Shown: positions 1 through 21,575 of the stretch, in pieces | How the letters are laid out: each line of letters opens with the position of its first letter | Position numbering within the stretch: the stretch's first letter is position 1 | Source: a bacterium | Lineage (GTDB): Bacteria; UBP7; UBA6624; JBBIMK01 | DNA length: 32,000 nucleotides | Direction of reading: 5' to 3' | NCBI GenBank assembly: GCA_037444445.1 | Contig: JBBIMK010000006.1 | Location: 54,267-86,266 of the forward strand | Translations under genes and position numbers: made by a program | The notes under the pieces: generated by a model | Databases searched by the model: none | Seen by the model: the letters and a program-made list of their open reading frames with translations, nothing else | What the model was told of the DNA's origin: nothing

Positions 1-3000
1 CAAAATGTCTTTGTGAACTATCCCTATGCCTATGTGTCCACCACACAGGCTGGCTTGAGGATTCTTGATGTGAGTGCTCCCACCCAGCCCAAAGAAGTAG
101 GATTCTTTCGGGATATTCCGTGGATAAATGAAGTGGTGGTGGAGGGAAATTTCGCCTATCTGGCTGCCGGCGCCGCTGGCGTTCACATCCTGGACATTTC
201 CAACCCCAATAACCCGGTGAGGGCAGGATTCCTGGATATACCGGGCGGTGCCAACGGAATTTTCATCTCCGGCTCTTACGCCTATGTAGCAGGTGGAACA
301 GAAGGTGGCTTTCGTGTTATTGACATTAGCAGTCCTTCCAGCCCCAGAGAAATCAGTTATCTTTATACTGCCGGTGAGGCTTACAAAGTGTTTGTCTCTG
401 CAAATCAGGCTTTTGTGACGGATGGAGAAGGGATATGGGTAATAGACATCAGCGACCCGAATAATCCAATAGAAATGGGATTCGTGGGTGCATCCGGAAA
501 GGAATGGGATGTTTGGGCTTCCGATGGCCGTGCCTATGTAGTAGATGAAGAAAGAGGAGTTCAAACCATACACTTGAGCCAGTTGATTCGGCTTGAGGAA
601 GTCGGAACTTACCCAGCGCCAGGAGAAGATATGCGAGTGTTCGTTTCCCGTGGTTATGCCTATGTAGCCGACCGCACCAGAGGGCTTCGGATTCTGGATG
701 TGAACAATCCTACACATCCCAGAGAAGTGGCTTCCTATACTCCACCGGTCGGAATCCAGAAAGTATTCGTAGCCGGGGAATATGCCTGTGTGTCCACGAC
801 GGAAGAAATTAGGATTCTAAATGTCAGTAACCCGTTAAAGCCTGTAGAGGAAGGTTGGATTCCCGGGCGCCCCCTGGAACTATTCATCGCTGGAAACTTT
901 CTCTATTCTGCGGGAGACAGGAGGGTATTTATCTACGATATTCGGAACCCCAAAAACCCCGTATTGACAGGATATTACGATGCACCCGGATTCGTCCAGA
1001 ATGTGTTTGTCACCGAAAGATATCTTTATGTGGCAACTTCTGATGCCGGCCTCCTAATTTTGGATATTTCCGACCCCCTCAATCCCGTAGAAGTTGGGGC
1101 TTACACGAAGGGAGGTGGAGCGATTAGCGTCTTCGTCTCCGGTTCTTACGCCTATGTGAGCACCGCCGGCGGGACCCGCATTCTCAATGTCCGCAACCCG
1201 GCCGCACCAACCGAAATGGCGATATTTTCGCCCACTGGAATGAGATTTCTTTCCGAGAAGTATGCCCTGGGGTATACAACAGCGCCCTATCTCTATCGTA
1301 AACTGGGACCCTTTCTTATAGACCTCCAAAATCCCGCTTTTCCTGTGCAGGTGGGACGATTTCCAGAGGCAGATTTTCCCTTCACAGATTTTTTTCTATC
1401 TGACGAGACTTTGTATGCAGTGGGTCCTCGCAGTGGCTTGCACATTTATCAGATGACTCCGGCTCTTTCAGCGTCACAAGAGGAAAAAGTAAAGGCTTCA
1501 GAAAAAGCCCCAGCAGAAGGGTTCTCCATCCCACCCCAACGCTTTCAGTTGACGGTAGAAATCACGGGGAAAGGAACCGTTACCAGCACACCCAAGGGTA
1601 TCCGGTGCGGGACTACCTGCTCCGCCCCATTTCCAGTAGATTCTACGGTAACTCTGAATGCCACGCCAGAAAAAGGCTGGGCATTTTCCCGCTGGGTAGG
1701 ATGCGACATCTCTCAGGAGAACCAGTGTTCCATCACCCTGAATTTTAACCGCACTGTGAATGTGGATTTCATTTCCCTGGATTCCTGGAGCAAAATTTAT
1801 GCTCCGGCTTATATCCGCACCATTCATCCCACTCCGGATGGAGGATATATCGGTGCAAGTGGAGGCTGGGCTTTCAAATTCAGCTCTCAGGGGAATCTGG
1901 AGTGGCAAAGGGCTTTCACCTTCACTGATAACTCTCGCTCTTTCTGGTTCAATTCCACTATGCCAGCAAAGGATGGTGGATATATCCTGGGCGGAGGCGC
2001 ACAAATTAGTGAAAAGAGGGGAAACGATTTGGTGACCGTCCGTTCTGACGCCTGGGTAGTGAAACTGAATTCTAAACTTCAGGTGGAATGGCAAAAGGCT
2101 TATGGCAACACGGTTAACAGTGAGGTAAAATCCATCATGCCCGCCAGTGATGGTGGGTTCATCGCCGTGGGAAGTATCGGGAATCCGAGATTTTTAACAG
2201 ATTCCCCCTGGATATTCAAATTGGATGCCCGGGGAAACATAATCCAGCAAAGGTCCTTTGAAAACGCTCTATTTGTTAAAGCCTTCAACATTCAAGAAAC
2301 TCCGGATGGCGGTTATATCACAGCACTCAGCAATGGCACGGTCATAAAAATGGATTCCCAACTCAAAGAAATCTGGCAGAAAAAATTCTGGATTCAAGAG
2401 CAGGATACCTACCGTTTTCATTCCATACTTCTGGCGAAAGATAATGGATTTCTGGTGGTGGGTGACACTACCGGCTGGAACCCCAGCAATACGGATTTCT
2501 TCCTCCTGAAACTGGATGCCACCGGGAATATGGTATGGAGCAAAGCCTATGACCTTCAGTGGCGCGACCGAATACGCTCCATTGCCCGAACCCTGGAAGG
2601 TGGATATATTGTGGCAGGAACCTCGGAACCACCTTCAGCGGGATTGGAAGAAGAGGAAATCTTCCCATCCAATCATATCTCCAGTAAATACTTTGCCACC
2701 ATCTGGGTGGTGAGGCTGGATGAGGAAGGCAATATCCTGTGGCAAAAAACTTACTCCAGTCCTTCAGGAAATCAATTGTATGGAATTCATCCCACCGGGG
2801 ATGGAGGTTTTCTCTTAGCCCTGCAGAGTTTTGTTATCACCCGCCCGGACCCGGAGTTGAGCCAGCCAGCGATATGGCTTTTGAAACTGGACGCCCAGGG
2901 CGATATAGCCTCTTGCGACCTGCCAGGCCTGGGGCAGGTTGCTTCTGGCAGGGTGAGAACTTTACAAGTTTCACCCGAAGAACTGAATCAACCTCCCTTC

Positions 3001-3165
3001 TCTCCCCTCACCCTAAAGACCACTTCCTTGAAAGTTAGAGATACCGAGGCTATTGTCCAACCGGCGGGTTATGTCAAACTTTTCACTGACCGTTGCGTCC
3101 CCGACCCGGAATTCTATAAAATTTTCCCTCTCTTGCAGACATCTCCTGAACTCGGCTTCTATTAA
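1..3165 (+). CDS. Multi-domain surface/secreted repeat protein, 5'-truncated by the window edge: LVIVD repeats + InlB-B-repeat-like domain + seven 'DGGY' propeller-like repeats
   Basis: Frame 1 is open from nt 1, and the first residues (QNVFVNYPYAYV) are already mid-repeat, so the GTG at 13 is not the true start. About 12 LVIVD-type units (YAYVA-x4-GLRILDVSNP-x2-P-x-EVG) run to about nt 1440. Nt 1543-1770 encodes 'GKGTVTSTPKGIRCGTTCSAPF..VTLNATPEKGWAFSRWVGCD', typical of divergent InlB B-repeat-like domains. Nt ~1830-2900 carries 7 spaced repeats 'P-x-DGG(Y/F)I-x-G ... (V/L)KLD-x-x-G-x-x-x-W-x-K-x-(Y/F)'. Confidence 0.8.
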   Translation, partial: QNVFVNYPYAYVSTTQAGLRILDVSAPTQPKEVGFFRDIPWINEVVVEGNFAYLAAGAAGVHILDISNPNNPVRAGFLDIPGGANGIFISGSYAYVAGGTEGGFRVIDISSPSSPREISYLYTAGEAYKVFVSANQAFVTDGEGIWVIDISDPNNPIEMGFVGASGKEWDVWASDGRAYVVDEERGVQTIHLSQLIRLEEVGTYPAPGEDMRVFVSRGYAYVADRTRGLRILDVNNPTHPREVASYTPPVGIQKVFVAGEYACVSTTEEIRILNVSNPLKPVEEGWIPGRPLELFIAGNFLYSAGDRRVFIYDIRNPKNPVLTGYYDAPGFVQNVFVTERYLYVATSDAGLLILDISDPLNPVEVGAYTKGGGAISVFVSGSYAYVSTAGGTRILNVRNPAAPTEMAIFSPTGMRFLSEKYALGYTTAPYLYRKLGPFLIDLQNPAFPVQVGRFPEADFPFTDFFLSDETLYAVGPRSGLHIYQMTPALSASQEEKVKASEKAPAEGFSIPPQRFQLTVEITGKGTVTSTPKGIRCGTTCSAPFPVDSTVTLNATPEKGWAFSRWVGCDISQENQCSITLNFNRTVNVDFISLDSWSKIYAPAYIRTIHPTPDGGYIGASGGWAFKFSSQGNLEWQRAFTFTDNSRSFWFNSTMPAKDGGYILGGGAQISEKRGNDLVTVRSDAWVVKLNSKLQVEWQKAYGNTVNSEVKSIMPASDGGFIAVGSIGNPRFLTDSPWIFKLDARGNIIQQRSFENALFVKAFNIQETPDGGYITALSNGTVIKMDSQLKEIWQKKFWIQEQDTYRFHSILLAKDNGFLVVGDTTGWNPSNTDFFLLKLDATGNMVWSKAYDLQWRDRIRSIARTLEGGYIVAGTSEPPSAGLEEEEIFPSNHISSKYFATIWVVRLDEEGNILWQKTYSSPSGNQLYGIHPTGDGGFLLALQSFVITRPDPELSQPAIWLLKLDAQGDIASCDLPGLGQVASGRVRTLQVSPEELNQPPFSPLTLKTTSLKVRDTEAIVQPAGYVKLFTDRCVPDPEFYKIFPLLQTSPELGFY

Positions 3166-3246: not shown

Positions 3247-5196
3247 ATGATTCTACAAAAATTCCCCGGGGGAGTCCTTTCTATCCTGATTCTCTGGTTG
3301 TGTTTCCTTCCAATCACCGGTGACGAACCACCTGGCATCATTCAAGAAAGTTACTCTGGATTCTATATGAAGAACGCTGACCCGGCATTTGATGTTGTGG
3401 TGCGAGGTAATTATGCCTATGTGGCAAGTGCAGGGCTCAAAATCCTGGATGTAACTCACCCTTCTTCCCCTGAGGTGGTGGGCTTTCTTCCTTCTCCTCA
3501 CAAAACCCTTCTCACCCGTCTCTTCCTTGCCCATCCCTTCATCTATATGAACGATGGGAAAAATCTCTCTATTGGGGATGTGAGCGACCCAAAACAGCCC
3601 AAGTTATTAGGCTCCTTCACCTCCCCCAATTCAGTGGTGGACCTGGCGATTTCAGACCCCTATGTCTTCCTGGCGGAAGGGGAAAAGGGAATCCGCATCC
3701 TGAACATCACCAACCCCTCTGATCCTAAAGAAATCCATGTCAATCCCATCCACGCCGATGCCCTCTTCTCCTCCGGAAAATATCTCTTTGTAGCAGACCG
3801 AATCCGGGGGCTATCCATTCTGGACATCTCCACCCCCACACAACCCAAGGAAGTGGGATTCCATCGTGGATTCCCAGGAGCAGACAGTGTCTTTGTTTCA
3901 GGTGAGAACGCATTCCTCTCCCAGAGTGGTTATAAACTCCTGATATTAAATGTGAAGAACCCCGTAAATCCCACGGTGTTGTGGGAAGAAGAAAAAACCT
4001 CACTTGAGGACACGGGGTCCGTTCAGGCTGTCTCGGGTAAGTATGTGTATACCCACACACGCAGTGGATTTCGCATCCTCCAATGGAGTAAAACTTCAGA
4101 ACAGCCTGTGGAAATGGCAAATTATAGCGTAGACCATTCGGAGCATTTGTTTGTCTCCGGTTCCTACTTATATCTGGCTACAGGAATGCAAGGGTTACGC
4201 ATCTTTGACATCAGCCAGCCATCTAAACCCCGACATATGAGCGGTGCAGACCCGGGTTGGGTCAAGGAAGTCCTCCTCGTGGGTGATTTTGCTTTTATCA
4301 CAAACGGCCATTACATCCATATCCTCCGCGTGGCACAACCCTCTGACCCAAAGGAGGTAGGGCGAATTGATTTGAACCCACCGAGCCCATACTCCTACGG
4401 TCTTGGAAGCGCCATAGCCCAGGATATTTCTTTCTCTAACCCTTACCTTCTCAGCACCAGTATCAGCGGCATGGGTAGCAGTAGTCTGGCCATCCACGAT
4501 GTCAGTAATATCGCAAAGCCAAAGTTGGTGGGGAAACTTGAATCTTTAGGGATGGCCTCTGCTCTCTCCATCTCCGGAAATTATGCCTACATTCTGGATG
4601 AAACTCCCCTCGTGATTGTAGACATCTCCGACCCTTCCAAGCCGAAAAAAGTGGGAGAGTATCGCAGGATACCTTCGGCGTTGTTTCTCAACGCTGGCAT
4701 TGATGTGTCGGAAGATTATGCCTATTTGCTCCAGGATAAACTCCTGATTCTGAATGTGAGCAAGCCTTCTATGCCCAGAGAAGTAGGAACTTATCCTACC
4801 TATGGAAACGGCATTTTTGTCTCCGGGCCCTATGTCTTTGTGGCAGGGGGTTTCAAAGGGTTGACCATCCTGGATGTGAGCAACCCTCAACTCATTTCAG
4901 AAGTGGCATCCTATGCCACACCATCCGGGTTACCCAACAATGTTTTTGTTACAGCAGGATATGCGTATGTGGCGGATGGAGAAAAAGGCGGGCTTCGGAT
5001 TTTTGATGTGAGCCACCCATCAAAGCCCGAAGAAGTGGGATATGTGGATACTCCCGGGGAGGCGTGGAGTGTGTTTGTGAAAGGGAAATTCGCCTATGTG
5101 GCCGATGGGGGCGGGCTCCGCATCTACGATGTCCAAAACCCCACTAAACCCGTTGAAGTAGGCTACTGGCACGCCCCACCGGTGCAAGTCTGGTAA
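3247..5196 (+). CDS. LVIVD-repeat protein with N-terminal signal-like peptide (paralog of the upstream gene's N-terminal half)
   Basis: ATG 3247 follows GGAGG (3236-3240) with a 6-nt spacer. The N-terminus has a hydrophobic segment (GGVLSILILWLCFLPITG). The rest consists of LVIVD-type units (YAYVA..GLKILDVTHPSSPEVVG, YAYVADGEKGGLRIFDVSHPSKPEEVG, and similar). Confidence 0.8.
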   Translation: MILQKFPGGVLSILILWLCFLPITGDEPPGIIQESYSGFYMKNADPAFDVVVRGNYAYVASAGLKILDVTHPSSPEVVGFLPSPHKTLLTRLFLAHPFIYMNDGKNLSIGDVSDPKQPKLLGSFTSPNSVVDLAISDPYVFLAEGEKGIRILNITNPSDPKEIHVNPIHADALFSSGKYLFVADRIRGLSILDISTPTQPKEVGFHRGFPGADSVFVSGENAFLSQSGYKLLILNVKNPVNPTVLWEEEKTSLEDTGSVQAVSGKYVYTHTRSGFRILQWSKTSEQPVEMANYSVDHSEHLFVSGSYLYLATGMQGLRIFDISQPSKPRHMSGADPGWVKEVLLVGDFAFITNGHYIHILRVAQPSDPKEVGRIDLNPPSPYSYGLGSAIAQDISFSNPYLLSTSISGMGSSSLAIHDVSNIAKPKLVGKLESLGMASALSISGNYAYILDETPLVIVDISDPSKPKKVGEYRRIPSALFLNAGIDVSEDYAYLLQDKLLILNVSKPSMPREVGTYPTYGNGIFVSGPYVFVAGGFKGLTILDVSNPQLISEVASYATPSGLPNNVFVTAGYAYVADGEKGGLRIFDVSHPSKPEEVGYVDTPGEAWSVFVKGKFAYVADGGGLRIYDVQNPTKPVEVGYWHAPPVQVW

Positions 5197-5380: not shown

Positions 5381-5938
5381 TCAGTGAAATTCGTTCGCCA
5401 CCACAAACCAGTTCGCAAACAACTCCTTCTCTATCTTTGGATAATCTTTATACCTTCTCCGTATCAAGCCCCAGAATTTATCATTATGCCTTCTTTCACA
5501 CAGATGGGCAACCTCGTGGAATATCACATACTCTATTAAATCATCGGGCAGATACTTCACCCATGTATTGATGGTTAAGTTTTTTTTGTGGCTCAGGCTT
5601 GCCCACCTGGTTTTCATTCTCCGGTAGTAAATGCGATTCAACTTCACACCCAATCTTTTGCACGCCTCCTGGCTTGAAGCATACACAAGGATTCTGAAAT
5701 CCTCATCTTTTCTGCGTATCACTTGCTTCCTTGAGGTGCTTTTTATGCACTCCTCTATAAAACCCATCTTCTTCCGAATCCACCGCTTATGCTTCTCTAA
5801 TATAGGCTCAGGTTTACAGCCGAAGGGTAAAATCAACACGAGTTCTCCTGTGTTCAATTCAATGCGCGGATATTTCACCGCACGATATAAAACTTTATAC
5901 GGTATGCTCTCCCATTCCATAAGAATCCAACTTTTCAC
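5381..5938 (-). CDS. DUF45 / YgjP-like (M48/WLM-like) zinc-dependent hydrolase linked to type I R-M
   Basis: Contains the HExxH motif in 'VIFHEVAHLCERRHNDKFWGLI' plus an N-terminal 'IPYKVLYRAVKYPRIELNTGELVLILP', both typical of DUF45 proteins. The 5' end overlaps the hsdR 3' end (hsdR stop at 5895-5897). The start is either GTG 5938 or ATG 5920. Confidence 0.75.
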   Translation of the reverse strand: MKSWILMEWESIPYKVLYRAVKYPRIELNTGELVLILPFGCKPEPILEKHKRWIRKKMGFIEECIKSTSRKQVIRRKDEDFRILVYASSQEACKRLGVKLNRIYYRRMKTRWASLSHKKNLTINTWVKYLPDDLIEYVIFHEVAHLCERRHNDKFWGLIRRRYKDYPKIEKELFANWFVVANEFH

Positions 5939-8989: not shown

Positions 8990-9844
8990 TTATTTCTCTG
9001 AAGATGGGGCATCTCGTAACCACCGGGATAAATACGACATAAGGGAGACCGTTATGTAGTAAGAGAGTGTGGCGTCTTCCGGAAACACGCAATAAGCCTC
9101 GCGATGAACACCAACATTAGCCCACTGCCGCGCTTTGTCTATCAATTCTTTGATCCGATTAGACTTCGCTAGCCTCCCATCCTCTCCGGGAAAACCTCCG
9201 TCAATCTGTCGAGCAATGTGCTCCCATTTGGCTTTGAGCAGTAGTTCAAGGGAGTCCCAGGCAACGCGCGTGTTCGCCATACAGCCCTCGTAGTTTCGTG
9301 CAAGCAGGTCATCATAAGCCTTCTGTAGGTGCTCCACTACCGTGTGGAAGCCTTCTATTCTGGGGCGCGATATTTCCAGTACCCACGACTCAGAGTAGCC
9401 CAACTTTTTAAGTATTCCAGACCATTCCTTTTGCGAGTACTTGATTGGAACTGTCCCAGGCCTCCCCAAGTAGAACGGTAAAGAGCCTTGAAGTACAGGA
9501 ACATGGTCTTGAAAACTCTGAATGTAGAAGTACATCCCGATATCCAAGTTAAGGACCACATCATCCACTCGCCTGGACTCTATCGCAGTAACTACATCAC
9601 GGGGGAAAGGAAATCTGAGTTGCAGGGTCTTATAATAACTAACCTTTTCAGCGGAGATTATCGGAACCGAACTGGTTAACGGGGAACCGTCCGAGCCAAG
9701 ACCAAGGTAGGCGAACGCCATTAAAAAACACACCTCTTCATCCCTGGAATCAATTTGGAGGTTAACGTTGTATTCTAACTGGGGGATCGCCCCCTCTATC
9801 ACATTACCAGATGGCGGAGATATCTCAGTTCGTTCAATTCTCAT
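8990..9844 (-). CDS. Uncharacterised 284-aa protein between hsdS and hsdR; beta-rich N-terminal half, helical C-terminal half resembling DUF4145
   Basis: ATG 9844 is preceded by GAGGTG with a 6-nt spacer. The ORF fills the whole hsdS-hsdR gap (48 nt and 26 nt intergenic). The C-terminal 'NTRVAWDSLELLL....IKELIDKARQWANVGVHREAYCVFPEDATLSYYITVSLMSYL' matches the DUF4145 pattern as I remember it (R..alE.ll / iR-x2-GN-x3-H / eDA). The R-x3-N-x3-H motif lies at nt 9104-9130. The family call is from memory only. Confidence 0.6.
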   Translation of the reverse strand: MRIERTEISPPSGNVIEGAIPQLEYNVNLQIDSRDEEVCFLMAFAYLGLGSDGSPLTSSVPIISAEKVSYYKTLQLRFPFPRDVVTAIESRRVDDVVLNLDIGMYFYIQSFQDHVPVLQGSLPFYLGRPGTVPIKYSQKEWSGILKKLGYSESWVLEISRPRIEGFHTVVEHLQKAYDDLLARNYEGCMANTRVAWDSLELLLKAKWEHIARQIDGGFPGEDGRLAKSNRIKELIDKARQWANVGVHREAYCVFPEDATLSYYITVSLMSYLSRWLRDAPSSEK

Positions 9845-9892: not shown

Positions 9893-11143
9893 TCATAAAA
9901 ATTTCTCCGCTTTCAAGCGAAATTTTCCGGTGAGCAAGGCCTGCATTAGACCTTTTTTCAACCTTTCCAGTTTCCCCTTTCTCTCGCGTTCCAGTTCCAG
10001 TCTCTCATCCACGGTTGAAAGAATCTCAGCGATTTTCTGCTGTTCGGGGAGAGGGGGGAGGGGGATTTGGAGGGATTCTAAAACGTTTTTATCTACATGA
10101 GGAATTCCTGTGCCTCTTGTCAGTCCACGTAAATAATTTTCTTTTGTTTTCAATAAGTAGAATAGGAATCTCTGATAGACGTTCTCTTTTTTAGGTTGAA
10201 TTTTAACCATTGTTGAAGAAAGAACTCCAGCTTTGCCAACAAAAAATTCCCCTGCGTTAGAACCATCCCACAACAAAATTAAATCACCCTCATTAACTAT
10301 AATTGTGCCACTAGAAGGTTTAGCAAATTTCGGTATTTCGTTGTTTCTTAAATATTCGGTCGAAAGATATGGGATATAACCTTCCTGAAATTTTTCATCC
10401 ATCTCTTCAGGTTTTCTGCCTTTTACAAACTCGATGGCATCCCCCAGTCTCACCACCTCCCACTCCTCCGGTATCCTCCCAATCTCTGTCTCCTTGAATT
10501 TTGTGTGCCCAATCCCCTTTGTAAGCAACTCCTGCATCATGCCTTTTTTTAACCGCTCAGTCTTCTCTATCGCCTCATCAACCTTCTCTATCGCCTCATC
10601 AGCAGTTGAAAGAACCTCGGCGATTTTTTTCTGTTCGGGGAGAGGGGGGAGGGGGATTTTTACACGGCTAAGCTCTGTTTGGTTAATGGAAGCTTGATTA
10701 ACCGCTTTTTTAGCCATCGACCTAAATCTATTTCTCGTTTGCTCCCATTTGAGATATTGAATTAAATACGGAGGACTACATCTTTCTTTGGCTGGTCTTA
10801 ATAAAAGGAGATTCATGCCATGAATCAGCAAAGGCGGGGCGCCCTCATAAATTGCTGTTTTAGCTATATGCTCAACACTATTGATATGACTAAAAAGTAT
10901 ATCTCCTACTTCTAATTTGTTATCTTCAATTTCCCCTTCTGTTAGGTTGTCCAAATAGCCAACTTTTGTTTTATCGATTTTACCCTCTGAGATCGTTTCT
11001 ATTCTCGTAATTGGATAACCGTTACCATCTTTTGTTTGTTTGTAGGTCAATCCATTTTTTATTAACGTAAGAATATCCCCCAGTCTCACCACCTCCCACT
11101 CCTCCGGTATTTCTCCAGTTTCAGTTTTCTTATATCTACTCAT
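9893..11143 (-). CDS. hsdS: Type I R-M specificity subunit with two target-recognition domains
   Basis: Two TRDs each open with 'IPEEWEVVRLGD'. Two conserved helices: 'LPPLPEQKKIAEVLSTADEAIEK..ERLKKGMMQELLTKG' and 'LPPLPEQQKIAEILSTVDERLE..ERLKKGLMQALLTGK'. Length 416 aa. Confidence 0.93.
   Translation of the reverse strand: MSRYKKTETGEIPEEWEVVRLGDILTLIKNGLTYKQTKDGNGYPITRIETISEGKIDKTKVGYLDNLTEGEIEDNKLEVGDILFSHINSVEHIAKTAIYEGAPPLLIHGMNLLLLRPAKERCSPPYLIQYLKWEQTRNRFRSMAKKAVNQASINQTELSRVKIPLPPLPEQKKIAEVLSTADEAIEKVDEAIEKTERLKKGMMQELLTKGIGHTKFKETEIGRIPEEWEVVRLGDAIEFVKGRKPEEMDEKFQEGYIPYLSTEYLRNNEIPKFAKPSSGTIIVNEGDLILLWDGSNAGEFFVGKAGVLSSTMVKIQPKKENVYQRFLFYLLKTKENYLRGLTRGTGIPHVDKNVLESLQIPLPPLPEQQKIAEILSTVDERLELERERKGKLERLKKGLMQALLTGKFRLKAEKFL
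10040..10659. repeat. Pair of 29-bp perfect direct repeats inside hsdS (10040-10068 and 10631-10659)
   Basis: 'ctgttcggggagaggggggagggggattt' occurs twice. It encodes the LPPLPEQ start of the two conserved helices. Confidence 0.9.
10439..11110. repeat. Pair of 36-bp perfect direct repeats inside hsdS (10439-10474 and 11075-11110)
   Basis: 'atcccccagtctcaccacctcccactcctccggtat' occurs twice. It encodes IPEEWEVVRLGD at the start of each TRD. Confidence 0.9.
10562..10603. repeat. 21-bp tandem duplication (20/21 identical) in the central conserved helix of hsdS
   Basis: 'cttctctatcgcctcatcaac' is followed directly by 'cttctctatcgcctcatcagc'. Together they encode DEAIEKV/DEAIEKT. Confidence 0.85.
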
Positions 11144-11147
11144 AATT

Positions 11148-11921
11148 TCACCACCACGCTTTTATTCCCCAGCCACTAACTGTCCCATTTCGTGGATTCT
11201 TTATAAAAAGGGGCCAGTAGATTTCTAAATAAGGACTGTATTTTGGTAGTTCCTCAATTTCCACAATTTCCCCAAGATGGCACCGAACCTCACCGCGAGT
11301 AAGTCGACGTTTTCTAACCTCTTTAATCTTTTGCCAAATAGCCTGGTTAAGAGAAGTTGCTATTAAATCAGTTACCTGCAATAAAACATTGAATTCATCA
11401 TTTGAAAATAAAACCTCGGGAAATATGCGTGACCTGTAGTATCCTTTTATTTTCCCCCGCATCTTCTGGGGTTCCATTGTGATATACTCAAATATCTTTC
11501 TTTTTAACTTTTTTTTCTTTTTCTCATCCAGTTCGTCAAATACGAGGATGCCTTGAGCATTCTCCAACTGAAGATTTATAAAAAATCTTTCAATGAGAAA
11601 ACACATCGCATCAAAGTAACAATTGTCAACTTCATCAACCTTACCTAAAGCAATGTCTCCTAATATAGAAGAGAGGACTATGCATTTGTGGCCTCTCAGA
11701 GTACCTGCTATTTTCTCTGTTATTTCTCTTTTTTTTCCGCGGGCAAGTTTCCCTCTTACATCCTTAAAACTTGTCATATCATAATTATTCTTAATATTCC
11801 CTAATGCGAGAATCGCATCAATCAGAGAAGTGTAGTCTATCATTAAACCACAAAGGCAAAATGAATACTTATGAGTTCCCATCTTTTGCCTTTCGGATTC
11901 ATCTATAAATAAAAATTTCAT
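11148..11921 (-). CDS. DUF3800-like protein
   Basis: N-terminal 'MKFLFIDESE' (the DES motif at the very N-terminus) and C-terminal 'LLQVTDLIATSL' (Q-x-x-D motif) are the two hallmarks I associate with DUF3800. The gene is very AT-rich and encodes a KKKKKLKRK stretch. Its ATG lies 1 nt after the stop of the upstream 111-aa ORF (TGAcATG). Confidence 0.65.
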   Translation of the reverse strand: MKFLFIDESERQKMGTHKYSFCLCGLMIDYTSLIDAILALGNIKNNYDMTSFKDVRGKLARGKKREITEKIAGTLRGHKCIVLSSILGDIALGKVDEVDNCYFDAMCFLIERFFINLQLENAQGILVFDELDEKKKKKLKRKIFEYITMEPQKMRGKIKGYYRSRIFPEVLFSNDEFNVLLQVTDLIATSLNQAIWQKIKEVRKRRLTRGEVRCHLGEIVEIEELPKYSPYLEIYWPLFIKNPRNGTVSGWGIKAWW

Positions 11922-11922
11922 G

Positions 11923-12258
11923 TCAATACTTCAGTGCCAAATAAACTGTCTGAAGTTTATTCAGTGGGCATCCGCCACGAGCATCGCAAGCATGCCCTTT
12001 GAACTTCCGATGGTCACAGAAATAACTCAGCAAATTGCCCTCAATATTACCTGCTTCTTCACAAGTGAGATAGTTCGTTAGAGGCATTATCTTGTCATAT
12101 TCTTTTGACCGTGATATGGGGTCACCGGTCCTGCCAATCCAAAATCCTTCCACTCCTGGCTGGTCAATGATTGAACAAATACGAGCAATAAGAGTCGTCA
12201 CTATCCCTACCTCCCACTCTTCTGGAATCTCACCGATTTTCGTTTGTTTGAAGTTCAT
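11923..12258 (-). CDS. Hypothetical 111-aa protein whose first 17 residues mimic an HsdS N-terminus
   Basis: ATG 12258 is preceded by GGAGG (12267-12271) with an 8-nt spacer. 'MNFKQTKIGEIPEEWEV' parallels the HsdS 'KKTETGEIPEEWEVV'. The remainder (FWIGRTGDPISRSKEY...EEAGNIEGNLL...VYLAL) has no family I can name with confidence. Confidence 0.5.
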   Translation of the reverse strand: MNFKQTKIGEIPEEWEVGIVTTLIARICSIIDQPGVEGFWIGRTGDPISRSKEYDKIMPLTNYLTCEEAGNIEGNLLSYFCDHRKFKGHACDARGGCPLNKLQTVYLALKY

Positions 12259-12353: not shown

Positions 12354-12617
12354 CTACCTTTCGTCGGGAGTGGAACCTCCGCCACAAGCATACATCAGTG
12401 GCGTTCTCCCGTGTGCATCTCGGGCGTTCACGTCCGCTCCTGCTTCAACCAGAGCTCTCGCTACATCAAGAAAGCCCTGCTGACAGGCCAGCATCAACGC
12501 CGTCCGGCCTAAACTATCCTTGGCGTTGACATCCGCTCCTTTCTCAAGAGCCAGCCGAACTCCATCCAAGTCGCCAATTCCACTGGCGTTCAATAACGCC
12601 AAGTCGACCTCCTTCAT
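12354..12617 (-). CDS. Small ankyrin-repeat protein (about 2.5 ANK repeats)
   Basis: 'GADVNAKDSLGRTALMLACQQGFLDVARALVEAGADVNARDAHGRTPLMYA' is canonical ANK. I prefer ATG 12617 (GGAGG at 12626-12630, 8-nt spacer) over the track's GTG 12626, which overlaps the RBS. Confidence 0.8.
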   Translation of the reverse strand: MKEVDLALLNASGIGDLDGVRLALEKGADVNAKDSLGRTALMLACQQGFLDVARALVEAGADVNARDAHGRTPLMYACGGGSTPDER

Positions 12618-12648
12618 ATCATTCACCTCCTTTAATGAACACTCTTCA

Positions 12649-13107
12649 TTATCCTATCTCATCCATTGCCTCTGTTTTTTCCTTCAGCCATTTTACGAAA
12701 CCATCAAGCACGATTTTTATCTCATCAAGATGATTCTTGCATATATCGTAAAGTTCCTCAGGGGTAATCTCCTGATAGAAATGAATCATACGATTTCTGT
12801 AACCTGCCATCTTTAGTAAGAGTTCACCCTCTTTCCGGGGTAGTATCATCTTTTCCATAAGTGCCTTCGCTACCTCTTTGTATTCTGCCACAGGCTGCCC
12901 AAACCCTTTAGCAAGAATATGCCTTCCCAGGTCAAAGAGTGCCTCTAATACCCTTCTTAGATAAGACTCAGCGGATGCTATGTTTCGGTGGTCATCAAAA
13001 AAGTCTTCCCCCTTATCCAGTGGAAGTTCTTTTATGGAATTCATCGCCTTCTGAATCCACAATATCCGATTAACAACCACCCTTTTGTTGACCCTACCTC
13101 CCTCCAT
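12649..13107 (-). CDS. hepT: HepT-family (DUF86, HEPN) RNase toxin of a type VII toxin-antitoxin pair
   Basis: 'GYRNRMIHFYQEI' contains the Rx4HxY motif (nt 12775-12798). The DUF86-like helical body reads 'AESYLRRVLEALFDLGRHILAK'. The start lies 4 nt after the hsdM-fusion stop. Confidence 0.85.
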   Translation of the reverse strand: MEGGRVNKRVVVNRILWIQKAMNSIKELPLDKGEDFFDDHRNIASAESYLRRVLEALFDLGRHILAKGFGQPVAEYKEVAKALMEKMILPRKEGELLLKMAGYRNRMIHFYQEITPEELYDICKNHLDEIKIVLDGFVKWLKEKTEAMDEIG

Positions 13108-13111
13108 AGGC

Positions 13112-15292
13112 TTATCCCCCCAACACCATCCTATCCTTCATTTTTTCGTAATCCTTCAACTCTGCTGCCTGCCGCATAATAGATAACTGATACTCTGCCT
13201 CCAGAGCAGGGTTATTTGCATAAAGCAATTGCCCTGTTACTATCTCAAGGGCTAAAAAAATAGAGGCATCCGGGATAGGGATAAGGTCCACTTTTGAAAC
13301 CCCGAATATCTCTTCAAATCTTTGAGTAATCTCTACCTTTTCTTCTATCGTGAGTTGCCTTTCAGGTTTTATCCCTATATCCAAGTCAGAGGTGCTTCCG
13401 GAGAGGTGTTCTATCTCGCCCTTGAGGAGCCTAACCAACTCTTTCGCTCGGCTACCAAAGGCATATATCATCTGAAGATGATACCTGTCTGCGACCTTCT
13501 GAACTTCCTCTTTTATCCGTAGATTTTCCTCCTTCTTATTTCCCAGTTCTTTCAGGTATTCCCCTATCCTCTTTTCAGCACTTATCAACTCTTCCTCAAC
13601 TCTCTGTAACGCCTCCCATTCCCCATCTATATCTATTTTCTCAACCTCCTCTTCCGGAAACACATAAAGGGTCACATTCAGGTTATAGTCGTTGCCCTTG
13701 ATTTCTTCCAAGGAAACAGCGCGAGCGAAGCTCTCTATGTCCTGAAAATCCCTGTATGCCTTCGCCATTCTTTCAATGTTTTTCTCCCCCAATCGGTTGA
13801 GTTTCCTCACCTCAGGGTGCTGTTCATATTCAGAAGAAGCGTTGATAAAAAGAACTTTGCCCTTTCTTCCCGGATTTTTATTCTTTTTCAAAATGAGGAT
13901 GGCTCCGGGGGCGCCAGTGTTGTAGAACAATTTTTCAGGAAGAAGAATGACGCATTCCAATAAATCCTTCTCCAGAACGGAGGTTCGGATTGCTTTCTCT
14001 TTTCCGCCCCGGAATAAGCAACCATTGTCAATCAACACACCCACCCTGCCATTTTCATCCTTCGCAGAGGCGAGCATATGCTGAATCCACGCCCAGTCGG
14101 CGGATTGCCTGGGCACATACCCGAAGCGGAAGCGCTGTTTGGAGAATTCCGCCTGCTTCAGCGTCTCATCGTCGTAGCCGTCCTGGTTCCACGGGGGATT
14201 AGTTAAAACCACATCAAACTTCTTTATCCCTTCTCCTTCCTTGAATTTCGGGGAGCGCAGGGTGTCGCCGTGGAGAATATGCGCATTCCGGATGTCGTGG
14301 ATATACAGGTTCATCTTTGCCAGGGCAAGGGTTTTGAAATTAATCTCCTGCCCGTAAAGGAAGAGCCTTTCCGCCTCGGACTCGCCGAAATGTTTTTCAA
14401 TATGCTTATAAGAAGTAATGAGCATACCGCCAGAACCGCAGGCGGGGTCATAGACGCTTTCTTTCGGCTCCGGGCTCAGGATTTCTACAAGAAGTTTAAT
14501 GACCTCTCGGGGTGTATAAACTTCTCCTTCCTTCGCCTTTGTGGGGGCGAAATAGCCTAATATCCACTCATAAGCATCCCCTAAGACATCCGGGGAAACA
14601 TTGTGCAGAGGTCTGGCGCTGAAGAGTTCCACCAGTTGCCTCAGGATTTCCGCATTCTCCCGGCTGGTGGTGAACTGGACGAAATCCACATTCTCAAAAA
14701 TATCCTTAAACTCCGGGTTCCTTTCTGCCAGCATTTTCATCGCTCTGGAGAAATTTTCAGGTATCCTTGCCGGCTCCTTCCGAATATTCTCCCATAACAA
14801 GTTTTCCAGGACATCAAAGTCATGGTGGACAGAATGTTTCGCCTCCATTTTTGCCTCTTCTTCACTCAACCCGTCTGCAAGGGCTTCCTGGAATGCTTCT
14901 TCATATTCCATCATCCATTTGTCGCTGAGCCGTTTGTAGAACAGGAGGAGAAGGATGAAGGTGTAATCCACACGGGTTCGAATCAAGTCCGCGGCGGATT
15001 TCAGAAGCCCATTCAGTTCCTCTCTCGTCAACGCTTTCTCTTCTCTTAATAAATCTTCCGGAATTATCTTCACCGGTAGCAGACGATAAATTTTTTCTCT
15101 AGCATCCTTCGGGTCGGATTGAGACTCTAATAACCCAGCCCTCCTCAACTCGGAAAGCACCACATTCACCTGGTCCTCTCCAGCCTCAAACTTTTTCTTC
15201 AGCACTTCTCTTGCCTCTTCTGAACGAAACTGTGACCCCGAAAAAGCTTCCTTCAGGGCTTCATAACGCTTATTCAGCCATTTTTGAACCAT
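13112..15292 (-). CDS. hsdM: Type I R-M methyltransferase subunit with N-terminal wHTH-like extension and C-terminal MntA-like nucleotidyltransferase domain (in-frame fusion)
   Basis: HsdM_N-like 'AADLIRTRVDYTFILLLLFYKRLSD'. AdoMet motif I 'VYDPACGSGGML'. Motif IV 'VLTNPPWNQ' (NPPW at 14189-14200). C-terminal 'MIYAFGSRAKE...SGSTSDLDIGI'. I place the start at ATG 15292 (GGAGG 15301-15305, 8-nt spacer), not the track's 15346, because a strong promoter lies inside that 54-nt extension. Confidence 0.9.
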   Translation of the reverse strand: MVQKWLNKRYEALKEAFSGSQFRSEEAREVLKKKFEAGEDQVNVVLSELRRAGLLESQSDPKDAREKIYRLLPVKIIPEDLLREEKALTREELNGLLKSAADLIRTRVDYTFILLLLFYKRLSDKWMMEYEEAFQEALADGLSEEEAKMEAKHSVHHDFDVLENLLWENIRKEPARIPENFSRAMKMLAERNPEFKDIFENVDFVQFTTSRENAEILRQLVELFSARPLHNVSPDVLGDAYEWILGYFAPTKAKEGEVYTPREVIKLLVEILSPEPKESVYDPACGSGGMLITSYKHIEKHFGESEAERLFLYGQEINFKTLALAKMNLYIHDIRNAHILHGDTLRSPKFKEGEGIKKFDVVLTNPPWNQDGYDDETLKQAEFSKQRFRFGYVPRQSADWAWIQHMLASAKDENGRVGVLIDNGCLFRGGKEKAIRTSVLEKDLLECVILLPEKLFYNTGAPGAILILKKNKNPGRKGKVLFINASSEYEQHPEVRKLNRLGEKNIERMAKAYRDFQDIESFARAVSLEEIKGNDYNLNVTLYVFPEEEVEKIDIDGEWEALQRVEEELISAEKRIGEYLKELGNKKEENLRIKEEVQKVADRYHLQMIYAFGSRAKELVRLLKGEIEHLSGSTSDLDIGIKPERQLTIEEKVEITQRFEEIFGVSKVDLIPIPDASIFLALEIVTGQLLYANNPALEAEYQLSIMRQAAELKDYEKMKDRMVLGG
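13115..13525 (-). other. mntA: MntA-like minimal nucleotidyltransferase domain (last ~137 aa of the HsdM fusion)
   Basis: The G-S ... D-x-D signature appears in 'YAFGSRAKELVRLLKGEIEHLSGSTSDLDIGIKP', followed by a helical tail. It is joined to the methylase by a charged coiled segment (EELISAEKRIGEYLKELGNKKEENLRIKEE). The GS-to-DxD spacing looks about 10 aa longer than in textbook MNTs. Confidence 0.7.
15074..15292 (-). other. About 73-aa N-terminal extension of HsdM with a winged-helix-like pattern
   Basis: 'FRSEEAREVLKKKFEAGEDQVNVVLSELRRAGLLESQSDPKDAREKIYRLL' precedes the usual HsdM_N start. It shows a helix-turn-helix plus wing pattern (L..LrraGLle......r...Y.l). Pattern recognition only. 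Confidence 0.4.
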
Positions 15293-15325
15293 TTTTTCTA
15301 CCTCCTTTTTTCCCCTACCGTATTT

Positions 15326-15354
15326 ATTGTAACTGATAGAAAGCAAAAAGTCAA
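15326..15354 (-). promoter_or_regulatory. Sigma70-type promoter of the R-M/defence operon
   Basis: On the - strand: TTGACT (15354-15349), 17-nt spacer, TACAAT (15331-15326). This sits about 30 nt upstream of the GGAGG/ATG 15292 start. Confidence 0.6.
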
Positions 15355-15414
15355 GGGCTTATTAGATAAGTAATGATTATTTAACTTTTATTATGAAAAC
15401 ATAAATACCGGGGG

Positions 15415-18120
15415 TCAGGGCTTGAGGAGGGCTTTGAGTTCCTCCAGTTTTTTGCCGAAGGTTGCGAAGTCGCCTCGCTTAAACGCTTCCTCCAGTTCTT
15501 GAAAAACTCTCCAGGCTTCGGCAGGCTTTTCTGCCATCACAGGGGCTTTTTCCTCTGCCATCGCTTCCCTGCCGGTTAAAAGGCTTATGGCTTCCCTCAG
15601 GTTCGCACCCATCACTACTTTCTGCCCGTCGGAAAGCAGAACCCTTTTCAATTCTGGGATTTTGCCTTCCTCCGCTTGAATATATAAAGGCTCAGCGTAA
15701 AGAAGGGAGCCGTCTATGGGAAGGACGAGAAGATTGCCCCGAATCACAGAGGAACCCCGCTGGCTCCAGAGAGTGAGTTCTCTGGAGATGACCGGGTCCT
15801 GGTCAATCCGCGCCTCCACCTGCATAGGACCGTAGATAAGGGCTTCTTTGGAGAACTTAAACAGAGCCAACCGGCCGTAGTGAGCCGGGTCGTTTGAGGC
15901 ATACAGCCAGCCAATCAAGTTGTCGCGATTTAAAGGGGTGAACGGGAGCATCAGGAGGAACTCCGGGCTTTCCAGCCCCGGTGGGCGAACCATCACATAA
16001 TAGGCTTCTACTGCCCGGGGGGAGTTTGCAAAAATTTCCCTCGCCCGCGTCCACAGATCCTCCTTATTATAAAATACGCTCACATCCTCCATATGATAAG
16101 TTGCCAGCAATTCGCTCTGGATGTTAAACAATTGAACCGGATAGCGGATATGCCCCTTCAACGCCTGGGGCATCTCGCTCCAGTCCCTGAATACGCCCGG
16201 AAATATCTTTTGATAGGCTTGAAATACAGGCTCCGGCTGAACGGCATAAAAAAACACTGAACCATCGTAGGCATCCACCACCACTTTCACTGGATTCCGA
16301 ATGTAATTCCATTTCAACGCAGGAGCCGGCTGGGCGTAAGGATATAGAGATGTGGAGGTATACGCATCCAGAATCCAGTAAAGGCGTCCATTGGCAATCA
16401 CCAGGTAAGGGTCAGGGTCGTAAGTAAAGTAAGGGAAAAGGGTCCTGACACGCTGGAGGATTTGCCGGCGGAAATGAATCCTGGAATTGCTCTTCACGGC
16501 GGAGGAAAAGAATAGGCGGGCATCGTCAAAATACAGAGCAAACAGGAAGCGGCGAAATGGAGAGCCTATCACCAGCCCATCCTTCCCCTGATATGCGGTA
16601 TACACATTTTCATCCCCTCTGGGGTAATCAAACTCTTCCTCTCTCGTTGCCGTCAGAATATAGGGCAGAGTCAATTCACCGAAATAGATTTCAGGACGCT
16701 GAATGTCAAACACTGGATACCGGCTCTTCGGCGGGATGTCTTGAACGAAGAAATCCGGAAGCCCCTCGGCAAGGATGCGCTCCACCGGGCTGACCACCGC
16801 ACCATACCCATGCGTGAACACCAGGTGCTGATTCACCCAGGTTTGAGCCTTCTGCGGCAGGAGGCGGGAATCCAGTTCCCTCGCCGATAGCATCACCTGC
16901 CTCCATTCACCTTCCACCCGATAGCGGTCAATATCTACATCCAGAAATCGGTAATAAGTTCGAATCTCCTGCAGTTGCCTGTAAGTGTCCATCAGAGGGC
17001 GATAATCCCACAGGCGAATATTTTTTACCGTGCTCTCCTCCTCCAGCTGGATTTCCGGTAGACTCCCAATTTTCACAGGATAAAACGAGGATTGAACTCT
17101 ATCCAGTCCATAGGCTTGACGGGTGGCTTGAATGTGGTTTTTGAGGAAAGGTTCTTCTTTATTTAACTCATCTGGAGTTACGAGGAGGGCCTGGAGGAGA
17201 GCGGGATAAAGCACACCGCCGACGAAGGAAAAAGCCAGCCAGCCACCCCAGCCATAAAACGGCAACAGGAGTTTCTTCCGATAAGGAGCCAGAAAAAATA
17301 GAATTGCCACCAGAACAGCACCCACCTGAAGCAGGCGGAAAACGGGCAGACGCGCATGCACATCCGTCCATCCTGCGCCGTAAAAAATGCCCGAAGGAGA
17401 ATACAAAAGCCCCCAGACGGCTAACTGGTAGCCGAAGGCTTTCCAGAGGAAAAAGACTCCGAGAAAACGGTAAAGGTAGAACCAGCCATGTGGAGAAGTG
17501 AAAGTGAAGAAGCGGGTCAAAAACCTCAGTACACCACTGAGAGCATAATAAACGGCTGAAGCGAGAAATGCGACAATCAGTGGAAACCAGAGGATGTTAT
17601 AAACACTCCGAAGGAAGGGGAGTTGAAATACATAAAACCCTATATCCTTTCCAAAGATAGGGTCCCGATTCTGGAAGGAAACCGGATTCAGAAAGAACAG
17701 GAACTCAAGCCACCGACTGGAAAACGCCAGAGCCACCACAAACGCCACGACTCCCGCTAACGGCCAGTAAACTTTTCGGAATCCTCCTGCCAGAAGGCGG
17801 TGTGGACGGAATCGCTCCCCGGGAAAGTAAACCTCCGTCTCTTCCTCCGGCTCCTTATCCAGTAGAAAAATCTGAAACCGGAAGAATAGCAGGGTCAGAG
17901 AGAACATCAGGAAAAATAGCCCGAAACGCACCAGTATCGGCTTTAACCATAAAGAAAGGTAACCCAGAGAAGAAAACCAGAGATAATCCATATAGGATTG
18001 CAACAAAAGGCTGGAACCCAGGAAGATGAAAAAGAGGACGGCCAGGAGAACCCACAGCATCTTCCACCGTCTACTCCGATACTCTCCCTCTCCGCGTCCG
18101 ACGCTGATTCTGATTCTCAT
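15415..18120 (-). CDS. UPF0182-family large membrane protein
   Basis: About 900 aa. The N-terminal third has multiple hydrophobic helices and 'YLWFSSLGY', which I recognise from UPF0182 proteins. The C-terminal part is a large soluble region. The true start may be the internal Met at 18060. Confidence 0.65.
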   Translation of the reverse strand: MRIRISVGRGEGEYRSRRWKMLWVLLAVLFFIFLGSSLLLQSYMDYLWFSSLGYLSLWLKPILVRFGLFFLMFSLTLLFFRFQIFLLDKEPEEETEVYFPGERFRPHRLLAGGFRKVYWPLAGVVAFVVALAFSSRWLEFLFFLNPVSFQNRDPIFGKDIGFYVFQLPFLRSVYNILWFPLIVAFLASAVYYALSGVLRFLTRFFTFTSPHGWFYLYRFLGVFFLWKAFGYQLAVWGLLYSPSGIFYGAGWTDVHARLPVFRLLQVGAVLVAILFFLAPYRKKLLLPFYGWGGWLAFSFVGGVLYPALLQALLVTPDELNKEEPFLKNHIQATRQAYGLDRVQSSFYPVKIGSLPEIQLEEESTVKNIRLWDYRPLMDTYRQLQEIRTYYRFLDVDIDRYRVEGEWRQVMLSARELDSRLLPQKAQTWVNQHLVFTHGYGAVVSPVERILAEGLPDFFVQDIPPKSRYPVFDIQRPEIYFGELTLPYILTATREEEFDYPRGDENVYTAYQGKDGLVIGSPFRRFLFALYFDDARLFFSSAVKSNSRIHFRRQILQRVRTLFPYFTYDPDPYLVIANGRLYWILDAYTSTSLYPYAQPAPALKWNYIRNPVKVVVDAYDGSVFFYAVQPEPVFQAYQKIFPGVFRDWSEMPQALKGHIRYPVQLFNIQSELLATYHMEDVSVFYNKEDLWTRAREIFANSPRAVEAYYVMVRPPGLESPEFLLMLPFTPLNRDNLIGWLYASNDPAHYGRLALFKFSKEALIYGPMQVEARIDQDPVISRELTLWSQRGSSVIRGNLLVLPIDGSLLYAEPLYIQAEEGKIPELKRVLLSDGQKVVMGANLREAISLLTGREAMAEEKAPVMAEKPAEAWRVFQELEEAFKRGDFATFGKKLEELKALLKP

Positions 18121-21041: not shown

Positions 21042-21202
21042 TTTCCGCGATGCTCCCACCGAATTTGCCCGGATGCCCCCACGACTTTCCTCAACTCATG
21101 GATATCCTGAAGTGCTTTCTGCTTCACGAAGTAATTCAGAGCCGCAACGATAAGGAAGACAGAGAGCCAGAAAAATAGAAAGGAAGATTTCTTACCGTTC
21201 AT
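21038..21202 (-). CDS. Possible 54-aa single-pass membrane mini-protein coupled to the ABC ATPase
   Basis: 'MNGKKSSFLFFWLSVFLIVAALNYFV..' has one clear TM helix. Its TGA stop overlaps the ATPase ATG (ATGA at 21041-21038). Confidence 0.4.
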   Translation of the reverse strand: MNGKKSSFLFFWLSVFLIVAALNYFVKQKALQDIHELRKVVGASGQIRWEHRGK

Positions 21203-21575
21203 GGCAAACCCCTTTCTCAAAGTCCGGGATGTTCGGGATAAAGGAAGAGGATAAGGAGCCGTAAACCCGCTTTCCCTTCTTCAAAATCTCCCCGATAAAA
21301 AGAGGGTGCACCTCCTGAAGCACTATGCAATCCACCATCTGATTAAGAATTTCTTCCAGGTGATTCATAAGAGCGGTTCTCATTTTTTCTATTTCAGAAG
21401 TTGAAAGAGGACGACTCAAAAAAATCCCGAAATTCAGTGGAAAATCAACTTTATCACAATTCTCTCCGAAGAGATATACACACTCAATTTCTTCCCATCG
21501 TGAAAAAAGAGAACTTATTTTATCCTGCATATTCCGTGAGGCTTCGGAAAGGGGAGAACCGGGAGAATCCCGCAT
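21192..21575 (-). CDS. Degenerate MNT-like nucleotidyltransferase-fold protein (catalytic residues apparently lost)
   Basis: 'IECVYLFGENCDKVDFPLNFGIFL...MVDCIVLQEVHPLFIGEILKKGKRVYG' follows the MNT layout (vyLFGS...D.D..v...vDlv.l.....l...i...G..ly), but GS is GE and the DxD is absent. Its ATG lies 1 nt after the TIM-barrel gene stop. Confidence 0.4.
   Translation of the reverse strand: MRDSPGSPLSEASRNMQDKISSLFSRWEEIECVYLFGENCDKVDFPLNFGIFLSRPLSTSEIEKMRTALMNHLEEILNQMVDCIVLQEVHPLFIGEILKKGKRVYGSLSSSFIPNIPDFEKGVCHER

Follow-up and report, generated by a model that had tools for sequence, protein, structure and literature searches.

Type VII toxin-antitoxin (TA) systems pair the HEPN ribonuclease HepT with MntA, a minimal nucleotidyltransferase (MNT), and the toxin is neutralised by covalent, catalytic AMPylation, which outweighs complex formation (PMC7641770). 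The poly-AMPylated residue in the HepT of Shewanella is Tyr104 (PMC7641770). Pairs of HEPN and MNT proteins and their association with restriction-modification (R-M) loci have long been known (PMC3632139, PMC3710099), and HEPN-MNT fusions are also known and have now been characterised (PMC13000451). PrrC and PARIS are established guards of R-M systems (PMC12707154), and Anantharaman et al. reported fusions of R-M-associated HEPN domains to restriction, helicase and ATPase subunits but none to methylases (PMC3710099). Here we describe a locus in which an MntA-like domain forms the C-terminal part of HsdM, the methylase subunit of a type I R-M system, and is followed by a separate hepT gene. The locus lies in a stretch of 32,000 nucleotides (nt), called the window below, that covers positions 54,267 to 86,266 of contig JBBIMK010000006.1 (assembly GCA_037444445.1) from a bacterium of the GTDB lineage UBP7; UBA6624; JBBIMK01. 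The sequence-only reading of the window had named no characterised example of this fusion, and we likewise found no report of an HsdM-MntA antitoxin fusion in the literature.

The fused reading frame and its HepT partner

The fusion and its toxin gene comprise the following features, with positions counted from the first letter of the window.

13112..15292, minus strand: hsdM-mntA fusion open reading frame (ORF), 726 amino acids (aa) plus stop in a single uninterrupted frame, with Pfam HsdM_N, N6_Mtase and Polbeta
15326..15354, minus strand: promoter-like TTGACT-17-TACAAT upstream of the fusion ATG at 15292 (consensus scan, 10 of 12 matches)
14621..15010, minus strand: HsdM_N domain, fusion aa 95-224 (PF12161, E 3e-13)
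13640..14596, minus strand: N6-adenine methyltransferase catalytic domain, fusion aa 233-551, with DPACGSGGML and NPPW (PF02384, E 2.3e-113)
13511..13639, minus strand: C-terminal helix of HsdM and fusion junction, aa 552-594, with the natural HsdM end near ...EYLKELG and the MNT start near L591-R592
13528..13534, minus strand: AAGGAGG, Shine-Dalgarno-like, within the coding sequence and 5 nt before codon CTA (13520-13522)
13115..13510, minus strand: MNT/MntA-like nucleotidyltransferase domain, fusion aa 595-726, with GS at 614-615, DLD at 637-639 and a third Asp at 670 (PF18765)
12649..13107, minus strand: hepT, 152 aa, HEPN/DUF86 ribonuclease (RNase) toxin gene, starting 4 nt past the fusion TAA (PF01934, 1e-20)
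12775..12798, minus strand: HepT catalytic and modification motif RNRMIHFY, aa 104-111 (R104, H109, Y111), Rx4HxY intact

The frame of the fusion is open from a TTG at 15346 to the TAA at 13112-13114 and gives 726 aa from the ATG at 15292 (ORF listing). The promoter-like site weakly favours this ATG over the TTG as the start, sites of this kind being no more numerous in the scan than expected from shuffled sequence. The N-terminal part carries motif I (DPACGSGGML) and motif IV (NPPW) together with HsdM_N and N6_Mtase, which identifies it as HsdM, and the presence of hsdS and hsdR in the same co-directional cluster makes the system one of type I. This part matches PADLOC MTase_I (9e-99), and the fusion scores 214.8 bits against TIGR00497, under the equivalog cut-off of 242.75. 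It is about 70% identical to hundreds of HsdM proteins of 585-596 aa, and both the C-terminal assembly helix of HsdM and all methylase motifs are retained. Residues 1-90 (15023-15292, minus strand) form an extra N-terminal region of about 90 aa that is common to all 585-aa HsdM relatives and gives weak winged-helix matches to HTH_27 and MsvR, both under threshold.

The C-terminal part contains the sequences FGSRA and SDLDIGI, and the expectation that family profiles would recognise it held for one profile and failed for another. The Pfam Polbeta family PF18765 was found at fusion aa 595-694 (E 1.8e-11, 44.5 bits against a cut-off of 26.9), while NCBIfam MntA_antitoxin matched aa 602-715 with 51.9 bits, under its whole-protein cut-off of 60 and so short of an equivalog assignment. 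The last 134 residues of the fusion share about 60% identity with a large family of nucleotidyltransferases that occur as free-standing proteins of 137 aa, and every residue that is invariant in an alignment of 40 members (G24, S25, D47, D49, E71, D80, G98 and L114) is kept in the fused MNT. A profile of this family matches Shewanella MntA (5yep_A, 2.3e-7); a profile was needed for this, a single-sequence phmmer search of the PDB with the MNT domain having returned no match. The AlphaFold2 model of the domain has a mean predicted local distance difference test (pLDDT) score of 93.6, and its best PDB matches by Foldseek are the MntA structures 7bxo and 6m6u, with a template modelling (TM) score of 0.74 when normalised by the query and 0.81-0.82 when normalised by the target, followed by the cyanobacterial MNT 7ae9. 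By its GSx(n)DxD signature, its third catalytic Asp and its predicted MntA fold, the domain classifies as a type VII MNT.

The absence of a free-standing mntA that was read from the sequence holds for the neighbourhood of hepT, where none that could be functional adjoins the toxin gene, and does not hold for the window as a whole, as a second MNT-like ORF lies at 21192..21575 on the minus strand (PF18765, 29 bits). In that ORF both GS and DxD are replaced (FGENC, FPLNFG) and no HEPN partner is found nearby; it is probably a degenerate, inactive nucleotidyltransferase.

The product of hepT scores 81.6 bits against NCBIfam NF047751 HepT_toxin, over the cut-off of 60. Its RNRMIHFY aligns to RNIAVHDY of Shewanella HepT 5yep_B (phmmer; also 6m6u_B), so that Tyr111 is the counterpart of the AMPylated Tyr104. 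A stop codon and the 4-nt gap part the MNT domain from HepT, and MNT and HEPN are therefore not one polypeptide. The 152 residues hold a HepT-like domain only, and the ABC/Rad50-like NTPase of the PrrC and RloC guards is not present. On these points the sequence-only reading stands: it had named the N-terminal part as HsdM, had placed an MntA-like domain in frame and physically within the same ORF, and had recognised behind it, at a distance of 4 nt, a DUF86/HepT protein whose Rx4HxY motif ends in the Tyr at the AMPylation site.

Origin and distribution of the fusion

The junction can be read against the ends of the separate genes. Unfused HsdM relatives end in ...YLRELEY or ...YLKELG and free MNTs begin with MNRIKE, and the fusion reads ...EYLKELG-NKKEEN-LRIKEE.... 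The codon CTA at 13520-13522 stands at the expected place of the mntA start codon, and no ATG, GTG or TTG that could start a separate MNT is found in frame before Met611, which sits inside the domain. The AAGGAGG at 13528-13534 is inferred to be the relic ribosome-binding site of mntA. Since the junction holds this relic but no start codon, the fusion appears to have arisen recently, when the stop of hsdM and the start of mntA were lost. The exact fusing mutation is beyond reconstruction, as the junctions of the carriers are identical and the nearest unfused relatives are too diverged in DNA; in an attempt to align full-length proteins and junctions, MAFFT placed the free MNTs onto an unrelated segment of HsdM (NDYNLNVTLYVFPEE against RYHLQMIYAFGSRA).

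A sequencing or assembly artefact, with a one-base error near an hsdM/mntA overlap yielding a false fusion, would be conceivable where relatives overlap the two genes in different frames, so that one indel would join them, and the analogous fusion described below rests on one short metagenome contig. We consider such an error very improbable here. A second strain, which differs from the window at about 4% of positions and was assembled independently, has the identical junction; this argues that the junction was inherited and is not an assembly error, and undoing an indel would restore no normal mntA, the nearest in-frame start, Met611, lying in the domain.

The second carrier, P0001, is the only fused protein among the 120 best HsdM homologues from a search that covered 5.8 billion protein clusters; it is 97% identical and comes from the Logan assembly of SRR11582170. 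The remaining homologues are 585-601 aa long, with one of 628 aa, and have no nucleotidyltransferase (NTase) domain. The fusion is found in none of 80 species-representative genomes with the HsdM clade, and mnt lies directly downstream of hsdM in only two of these. Seen from the antitoxin, 80 metagenome loci of the MNT clade have hepT downstream in 70 cases, an hsdM-clade gene upstream in four and a fusion in none, and the longest open frame upstream of any of these MNTs is 74 codons. A junction-spanning query, searched exhaustively with HMMER against 1.84 billion cluster representatives, gave no protein covering both halves among the best 150; the long HsdM proteins that came up are HsdM-HsdS read-through fusions from the same HsdM clade. 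Clustering at 50% can hide fusions, and the cluster of the fusion itself is represented by a 591-aa HsdM. A word-indexed search with the C-terminal 147 or 287 residues as queries did not return P0001, and its negatives are unreliable for long multidomain proteins; the junction query turned up a further protein, P0460, in this kind of search. A tblastn search of PLSDB plasmids gave one place that covers at least 80% of the junction query, which is not an MNT fusion, as the MNT alone matches no plasmid. A scan of viral contigs found nothing.

Other relatives keep the genes apart. In Candidatus Desulfofervidus auxilii (L002, JAJSZS010000005.1) hsdM (585 aa), mntA (137 aa) and hepT (152 aa) are separate, with an 8-nt overlap of hsdM and mntA; in Aminicenantes JdFR-78 (L009) hsdM and mntA overlap by 23 nt in another frame, and in a third locus (L007) a spacer of about 200 nt separates them. 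These unfused relatives share with the window the HsdM clade (about 70% identical), the MNT clade (about 61%), the HepT clade and the gene order; they differ in having three genes with an hsdM/mntA overlap of 8-23 nt, where in the window stop and start are gone and one ORF remains. The description of the TA pair as built into a type I R-M enzyme was thus not sustained as a general architecture, for the two parts correspond to neighbouring, overlapping genes, which every other relative examined has as separate ones.

P0460 (JGI 3300035099, Ga0373621_078901; L163:31-1780) belongs to the same HsdM clade and is fused to an MNT of the PF01909 type after ...YLEELGY, and a PF05168-type HEPN gene follows with a 17-nt overlap. 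The contig L163 is a single unconfirmed one of 1.8 kb, truncated at both ends. It resembles the window in HsdM clade, fusion point and the HEPN gene next to it, and differs in its MNT (PF01909) and HEPN (PF05168) types. As the MNT and HEPN families differ, the P0460 fusion appears to be a separate, independent event. A single polypeptide with N6_Mtase and NTase domains, an architecture that might have proved common, was found only in the window, P0001 and the analogue P0460, in a census that is incomplete. On the sequences compared, the HsdM-MNT fusion is rare and recent, restricted to a single species-level lineage and an unrelated contig.

The locus that carries P0001 (L001), from a sister strain, gives a view of the module after the fusion. 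The fusion is intact there and differs from that of the window at 25 amino acids, of which four lie in the MNT part. HepT has lost everything beyond Arg104, the catalytic His and the target Tyr included, to a deletion of 163 nt (window 12631-12793, with AAA microhomology), and the HepT(1-104) remnant is joined in frame to an ankyrin-repeat protein (L001:3424-4014). L001 is hence a natural toxin knock-out beside an intact HsdM-MNT fusion. Divergence between window 12794-16533 and L001 is uneven, with 0-2% in MNT-HepT, 1-4% in HsdM and about 15% upstream of hsdM (15284-15533); at synonymous sites it amounts to 0.068 in HsdM and 0.011 in the MNT. This uneven divergence suggests a mosaic history.

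Working of the tethered antitoxin and its alternatives

By analogy with the characterised pairs, we think it probable that the tethered MNT still AMPylates Tyr111 of HepT with ATP, in ordinary type VII neutralisation as performed by free MntA. The variable gap past hsdM would have gained a type VII mntA-hepT pair, as it has in a few relatives, and hsdM and mntA would have been tightly packed, probably overlapping, before the loss of stop and start. With that loss HsdM and MntA would be made as one protein of 726 aa, in which the fusion point at the N-terminus of the MNT presumably leaves the rest of the domain unaltered. AMPylation of Tyr111 by the tethered MNT would then keep the HepT RNase silent, and the supply of MNT would be tied to full-length HsdM, to its level and its stability. 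Truncation or deletion of hsdM would accordingly be expected to remove two antidotes together, the one against self-restriction by HsdR and the one against HepT. An MNT with an altered terminus has precedent in that N-terminally tagged MntA is expressed and stable in the native host and that an MNT fused to a HEPN domain is stabilised (PMC13000451). A working antidote is to be expected in the window because hepT is intact and high-scoring and a cell with an intact toxin and a dead antitoxin should not survive, unless HepT is silenced otherwise. In our view the fusion is an accident that has been tolerated and is perhaps mildly stabilising, rather than an evolved sensor.

Several observations weigh against this reading, and several of them speak for its main alternative, a decaying module, in which the fusion would mark one stage in the erosion of an inserted TA pair, the MNT or HepT would be no longer functional or needed, and the join would persist as harmless to HsdM. 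The fused MNT departs from its relatives at 10 of 69 columns that are at least 90% conserved in 120 free MNTs (free mean 2.0, maximum 9), and HepT does so at 7 of 62 highly conserved columns (free mean 1.4, maximum 5). Both values exceed those of the free relatives, as decay would have it; the departures are mostly conservative and miss the catalytic residues, and they could reflect incipient decay or only a divergent branch. The GS-DxD spacer of 21 residues is unlike the 10 of Shewanella MntA, the length of 21 being common to 120 of 120 free relatives. Between the window and L001, HsdM has evolved with an omega of 0.23, against one synonymous and four nonsynonymous substitutions in the MNT part and none and three, respectively, in HepT codons 1-104. 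The resulting nonsynonymous to synonymous ratio of 7:1 over MNT and HepT(1-104) fits relaxed constraint, on tiny counts; by our own binomial estimate from these eight substitutions the departure from HsdM-like constraint has p ~0.02. The loss of the HepT active site in L001 would make the module dispensable in at least one close relative, and the same 163-nt deletion, which took RNRMIHFY and joined the remnant to the ankyrin gene, is what erosion would produce, as is the loss of the mntA start codon. The incomplete census is a further weakness, two word-indexed searches having missed P0001, their expected top match. Decay is nevertheless possible rather than likely in our view. The hepT of the window is full length, with R104, H109 and Y111 intact and a score over the NCBIfam equivalog cut-off, no invariant residue of the MNT has changed and its predicted fold is confident, and the lethality argument given above applies here as well, intact HepT implying a working MNT unless the toxin is otherwise silenced. 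The substitution counts are too small to decide the matter, and part of the MNT and HepT substitutions may post-date the loss of the toxin in L001, so that part of the relaxed signal may stem from that branch after the deletion.

A guard of the PrrC kind would give the fusion a more active role. HepT would be bound to the MNT of HsdM and docked on M2S1 or R2M2S1 as a latent RNase. A phage anti-restriction protein, or the proteolysis or titration of HsdM, would halt the activity of the MNT or free HepT, and a build-up of unmodified HepT would then lead to abortive infection (Abi). The antitoxin is indeed covalently part of HsdM, the module sits where PrrC-type and other Abi and TA genes occur in type I loci, and the independent HsdM-MNT fusion of L163, with a HEPN gene and other families, is a recurrence that could mean selection. 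The joining of the methylase and MNT 'antidotes' would also mirror the rule that R-M-associated HEPN toxins join restriction or helicase subunits and not methylases (PMC3710099). We nevertheless hold a guard to be quite unlikely, given that covalent modification outweighs complex formation in this type of system (PMC7641770) and AMPylated HepT would stay inactive after inhibition of HsdM. Neither a de-AMPylase nor a sensor or trigger can be made out in the locus, HepT is without the ABC-ATPase regulatory domain of PrrC, the fusion is limited to one species-level lineage and one unrelated contig, and L001 has lost the HepT active site yet keeps the fusion. With the HepT motif deleted in the only close fusion carrier, a strongly selected guard function in the lineage is argued against. 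The release of HepT upon inhibition of HsdM by Ocr/ArdA-like proteins, as put forward in the sequence-only reading, was pure conjecture and did not hold up well, in that covalent AMPylation would not clearly be reversed by a block of the groove in which HsdM binds DNA. A bolder form of the same idea, which we likewise count as improbable, makes HsdM a 'double-antidote' subunit, the methylase guarding the genome from HsdR and the MNT tail guarding the cell from docked HepT, so that DNA restriction and RNA cleavage would be set loose at once if HsdM were lost, cleaved or inhibited in the course of phage infection. If true, it would be a new R-M guard based on an enzyme antitoxin, and L163 would be convergent evidence of a selected coupling.

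Under ordinary neutralisation by the tethered MNT, the fusion would still signify that an enzyme-type antitoxin can be moved onto another defence protein with its function kept, and that the antidotes to HsdR and HepT, two different toxins, could come from one gene. The fusion is a natural construct for testing whether an R-M-embedded HepT/MntA cooperates with restriction and whether the rule 'toxins to restriction subunits, antidotes to methylases' holds. If it is only an accident, it offers a clean, dated case of two genes fused as an overlapping stop and start were lost, with a relic ribosome-binding site, and the sister strain shows the next step, inactivation of the toxin. The fusion is real, rare and recent, and would be much more interesting if the tethering proved functional.

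The surrounding locus and comparison with known systems

The genes of the cluster are co-directional in the order hsdM-mnt, hepT, ankyrin gene, 111-aa ORF, DUF3800 gene, hsdS, 284-aa ORF, hsdR and YgjP-like gene. Beyond the fusion and hepT it comprises the following.

12354..12626, minus strand: small ankyrin-repeat gene, 90 aa, directly past hepT (Pfam Ank families), found among the fetched loci only in the window and L001
12305..12338, minus strand: terminator-like hairpin with a 14-bp stem past the ankyrin gene (consensus match only)
11923..12258, minus strand: 111-aa ORF that opens with a copy, ~17 residues long, of the HsdS N-terminal motif (IGEIPEEWEV) and is without family match in the remainder
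11148..11921, minus strand: DUF3800 gene, an accessory insertion (PF12686, E 1e-10), absent from L001 and present in the same gap in three other loci
9893..11143, minus strand: hsdS, 416 aa, with two target-recognition domains (PF01420, E 1e-61; PADLOC Specificity_I)
8990..9844, minus strand: 284-aa ORF between hsdS and hsdR, with no Pfam, NCBIfam or PADLOC match, found among the fetched loci only in the window and L001
5895..8963, minus strand: hsdR, 1022 aa (TIGR00348, 705.8 bits against a cut-off of 284.55)
5381..5938, minus strand: YgjP-like HExxH metallopeptidase gene (PF01863, E 1.5e-26), overlapping the hsdR 3' end by 44 nt

The gap between hsdM and hsdS is variable throughout the HsdM clade (L003-L082), with inserts of 0.3-5.6 kb in 35 of the 41 loci where hsdS was located downstream. 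The inserts include Schlafen/AlbA_2 proteins with HATPase_c_4 (17 ORFs), Fic (14) and Polbeta (3), and further NYN, AbiEii, DUF3800, TIR, PIN, Abi_2, Shedu SduA_C and SIR2. By this gene content, a typical mix of defence and TA families, the gap is a hotspot for accessory genes of a kind already known, with mntA-hepT as one of many cargoes. The variation extends to the sister strain, where the DUF3800 gene is absent and the first HsdS target-recognition domain is different (blastn); window 11148-11921 and 10069-11143 stand against about 1 kb of unrelated sequence in L001, the rest of the locus being 92-96% identical. We interpret this swap as cassette-like variation. The 111-aa ORF opens with MNFKQTKIGEIPEEWEV, a copy of the HsdS N-terminus, continues with unrelated sequence and is kept in L001; it has the look of a remnant left by recombination or insertion at the hsdS 5' end. 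Homologues of the YgjP-like gene follow hsdR in at least four related loci (L010, L035, L043 and L049). Two large genes for LVIVD-repeat beta-propellers, at 13-3165 and 3247-5196, both on the plus strand, flank the R-M cluster; the first has at least nine repeats, and the proteins appear unrelated to the fusion.

Compared with the described type VII HepT/MntA systems of Shewanella oneidensis (SO_3166/SO_3165, PDB 5YEP/7BXO) and Aphanizomenon flos-aquae (7AE9), the window has the same order of antitoxin then toxin with tight spacing, a DUF86-type HEPN with Rx4HxY, and an MNT with GS...DxD, a third Asp and the same predicted fold, and by analogy the motif Tyr would be expected to be AMPylated. 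It differs in that its antitoxin is not a free protein of about 140 aa but makes up the C-terminal domain of an HsdM of 726 aa, in that a type I R-M operon surrounds the pair, and in a GS-DxD spacer of 21 instead of 10. With PrrC/EcoprrI, the guard of a type Ic R-M system, it shares an RNase gene of the HEPN superfamily adjoining hsdM inside a type I operon, and control of the RNase might conceivably be linked to R-M status here too. PrrC carries an ABC-ATPase at its N-terminus, has no antitoxin of the enzyme kind and is kept latent through non-covalent contacts with EcoprrI, whereas the RNase of the window is, as judged from its domains, a minimal HepT putatively under the control of a nucleotidyltransferase. 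FhepTA, the Shewanella MNT-HEPN fusion (PMC13000451), likewise holds an MNT antitoxin domain within a larger polypeptide; there the MNT is joined to its own toxin and modifies it in cis, whereas here it is joined to HsdM and the toxin is separate. An antitoxin fused to a methylase forms the logical mirror of the rule that joins HEPN domains to restriction subunits.

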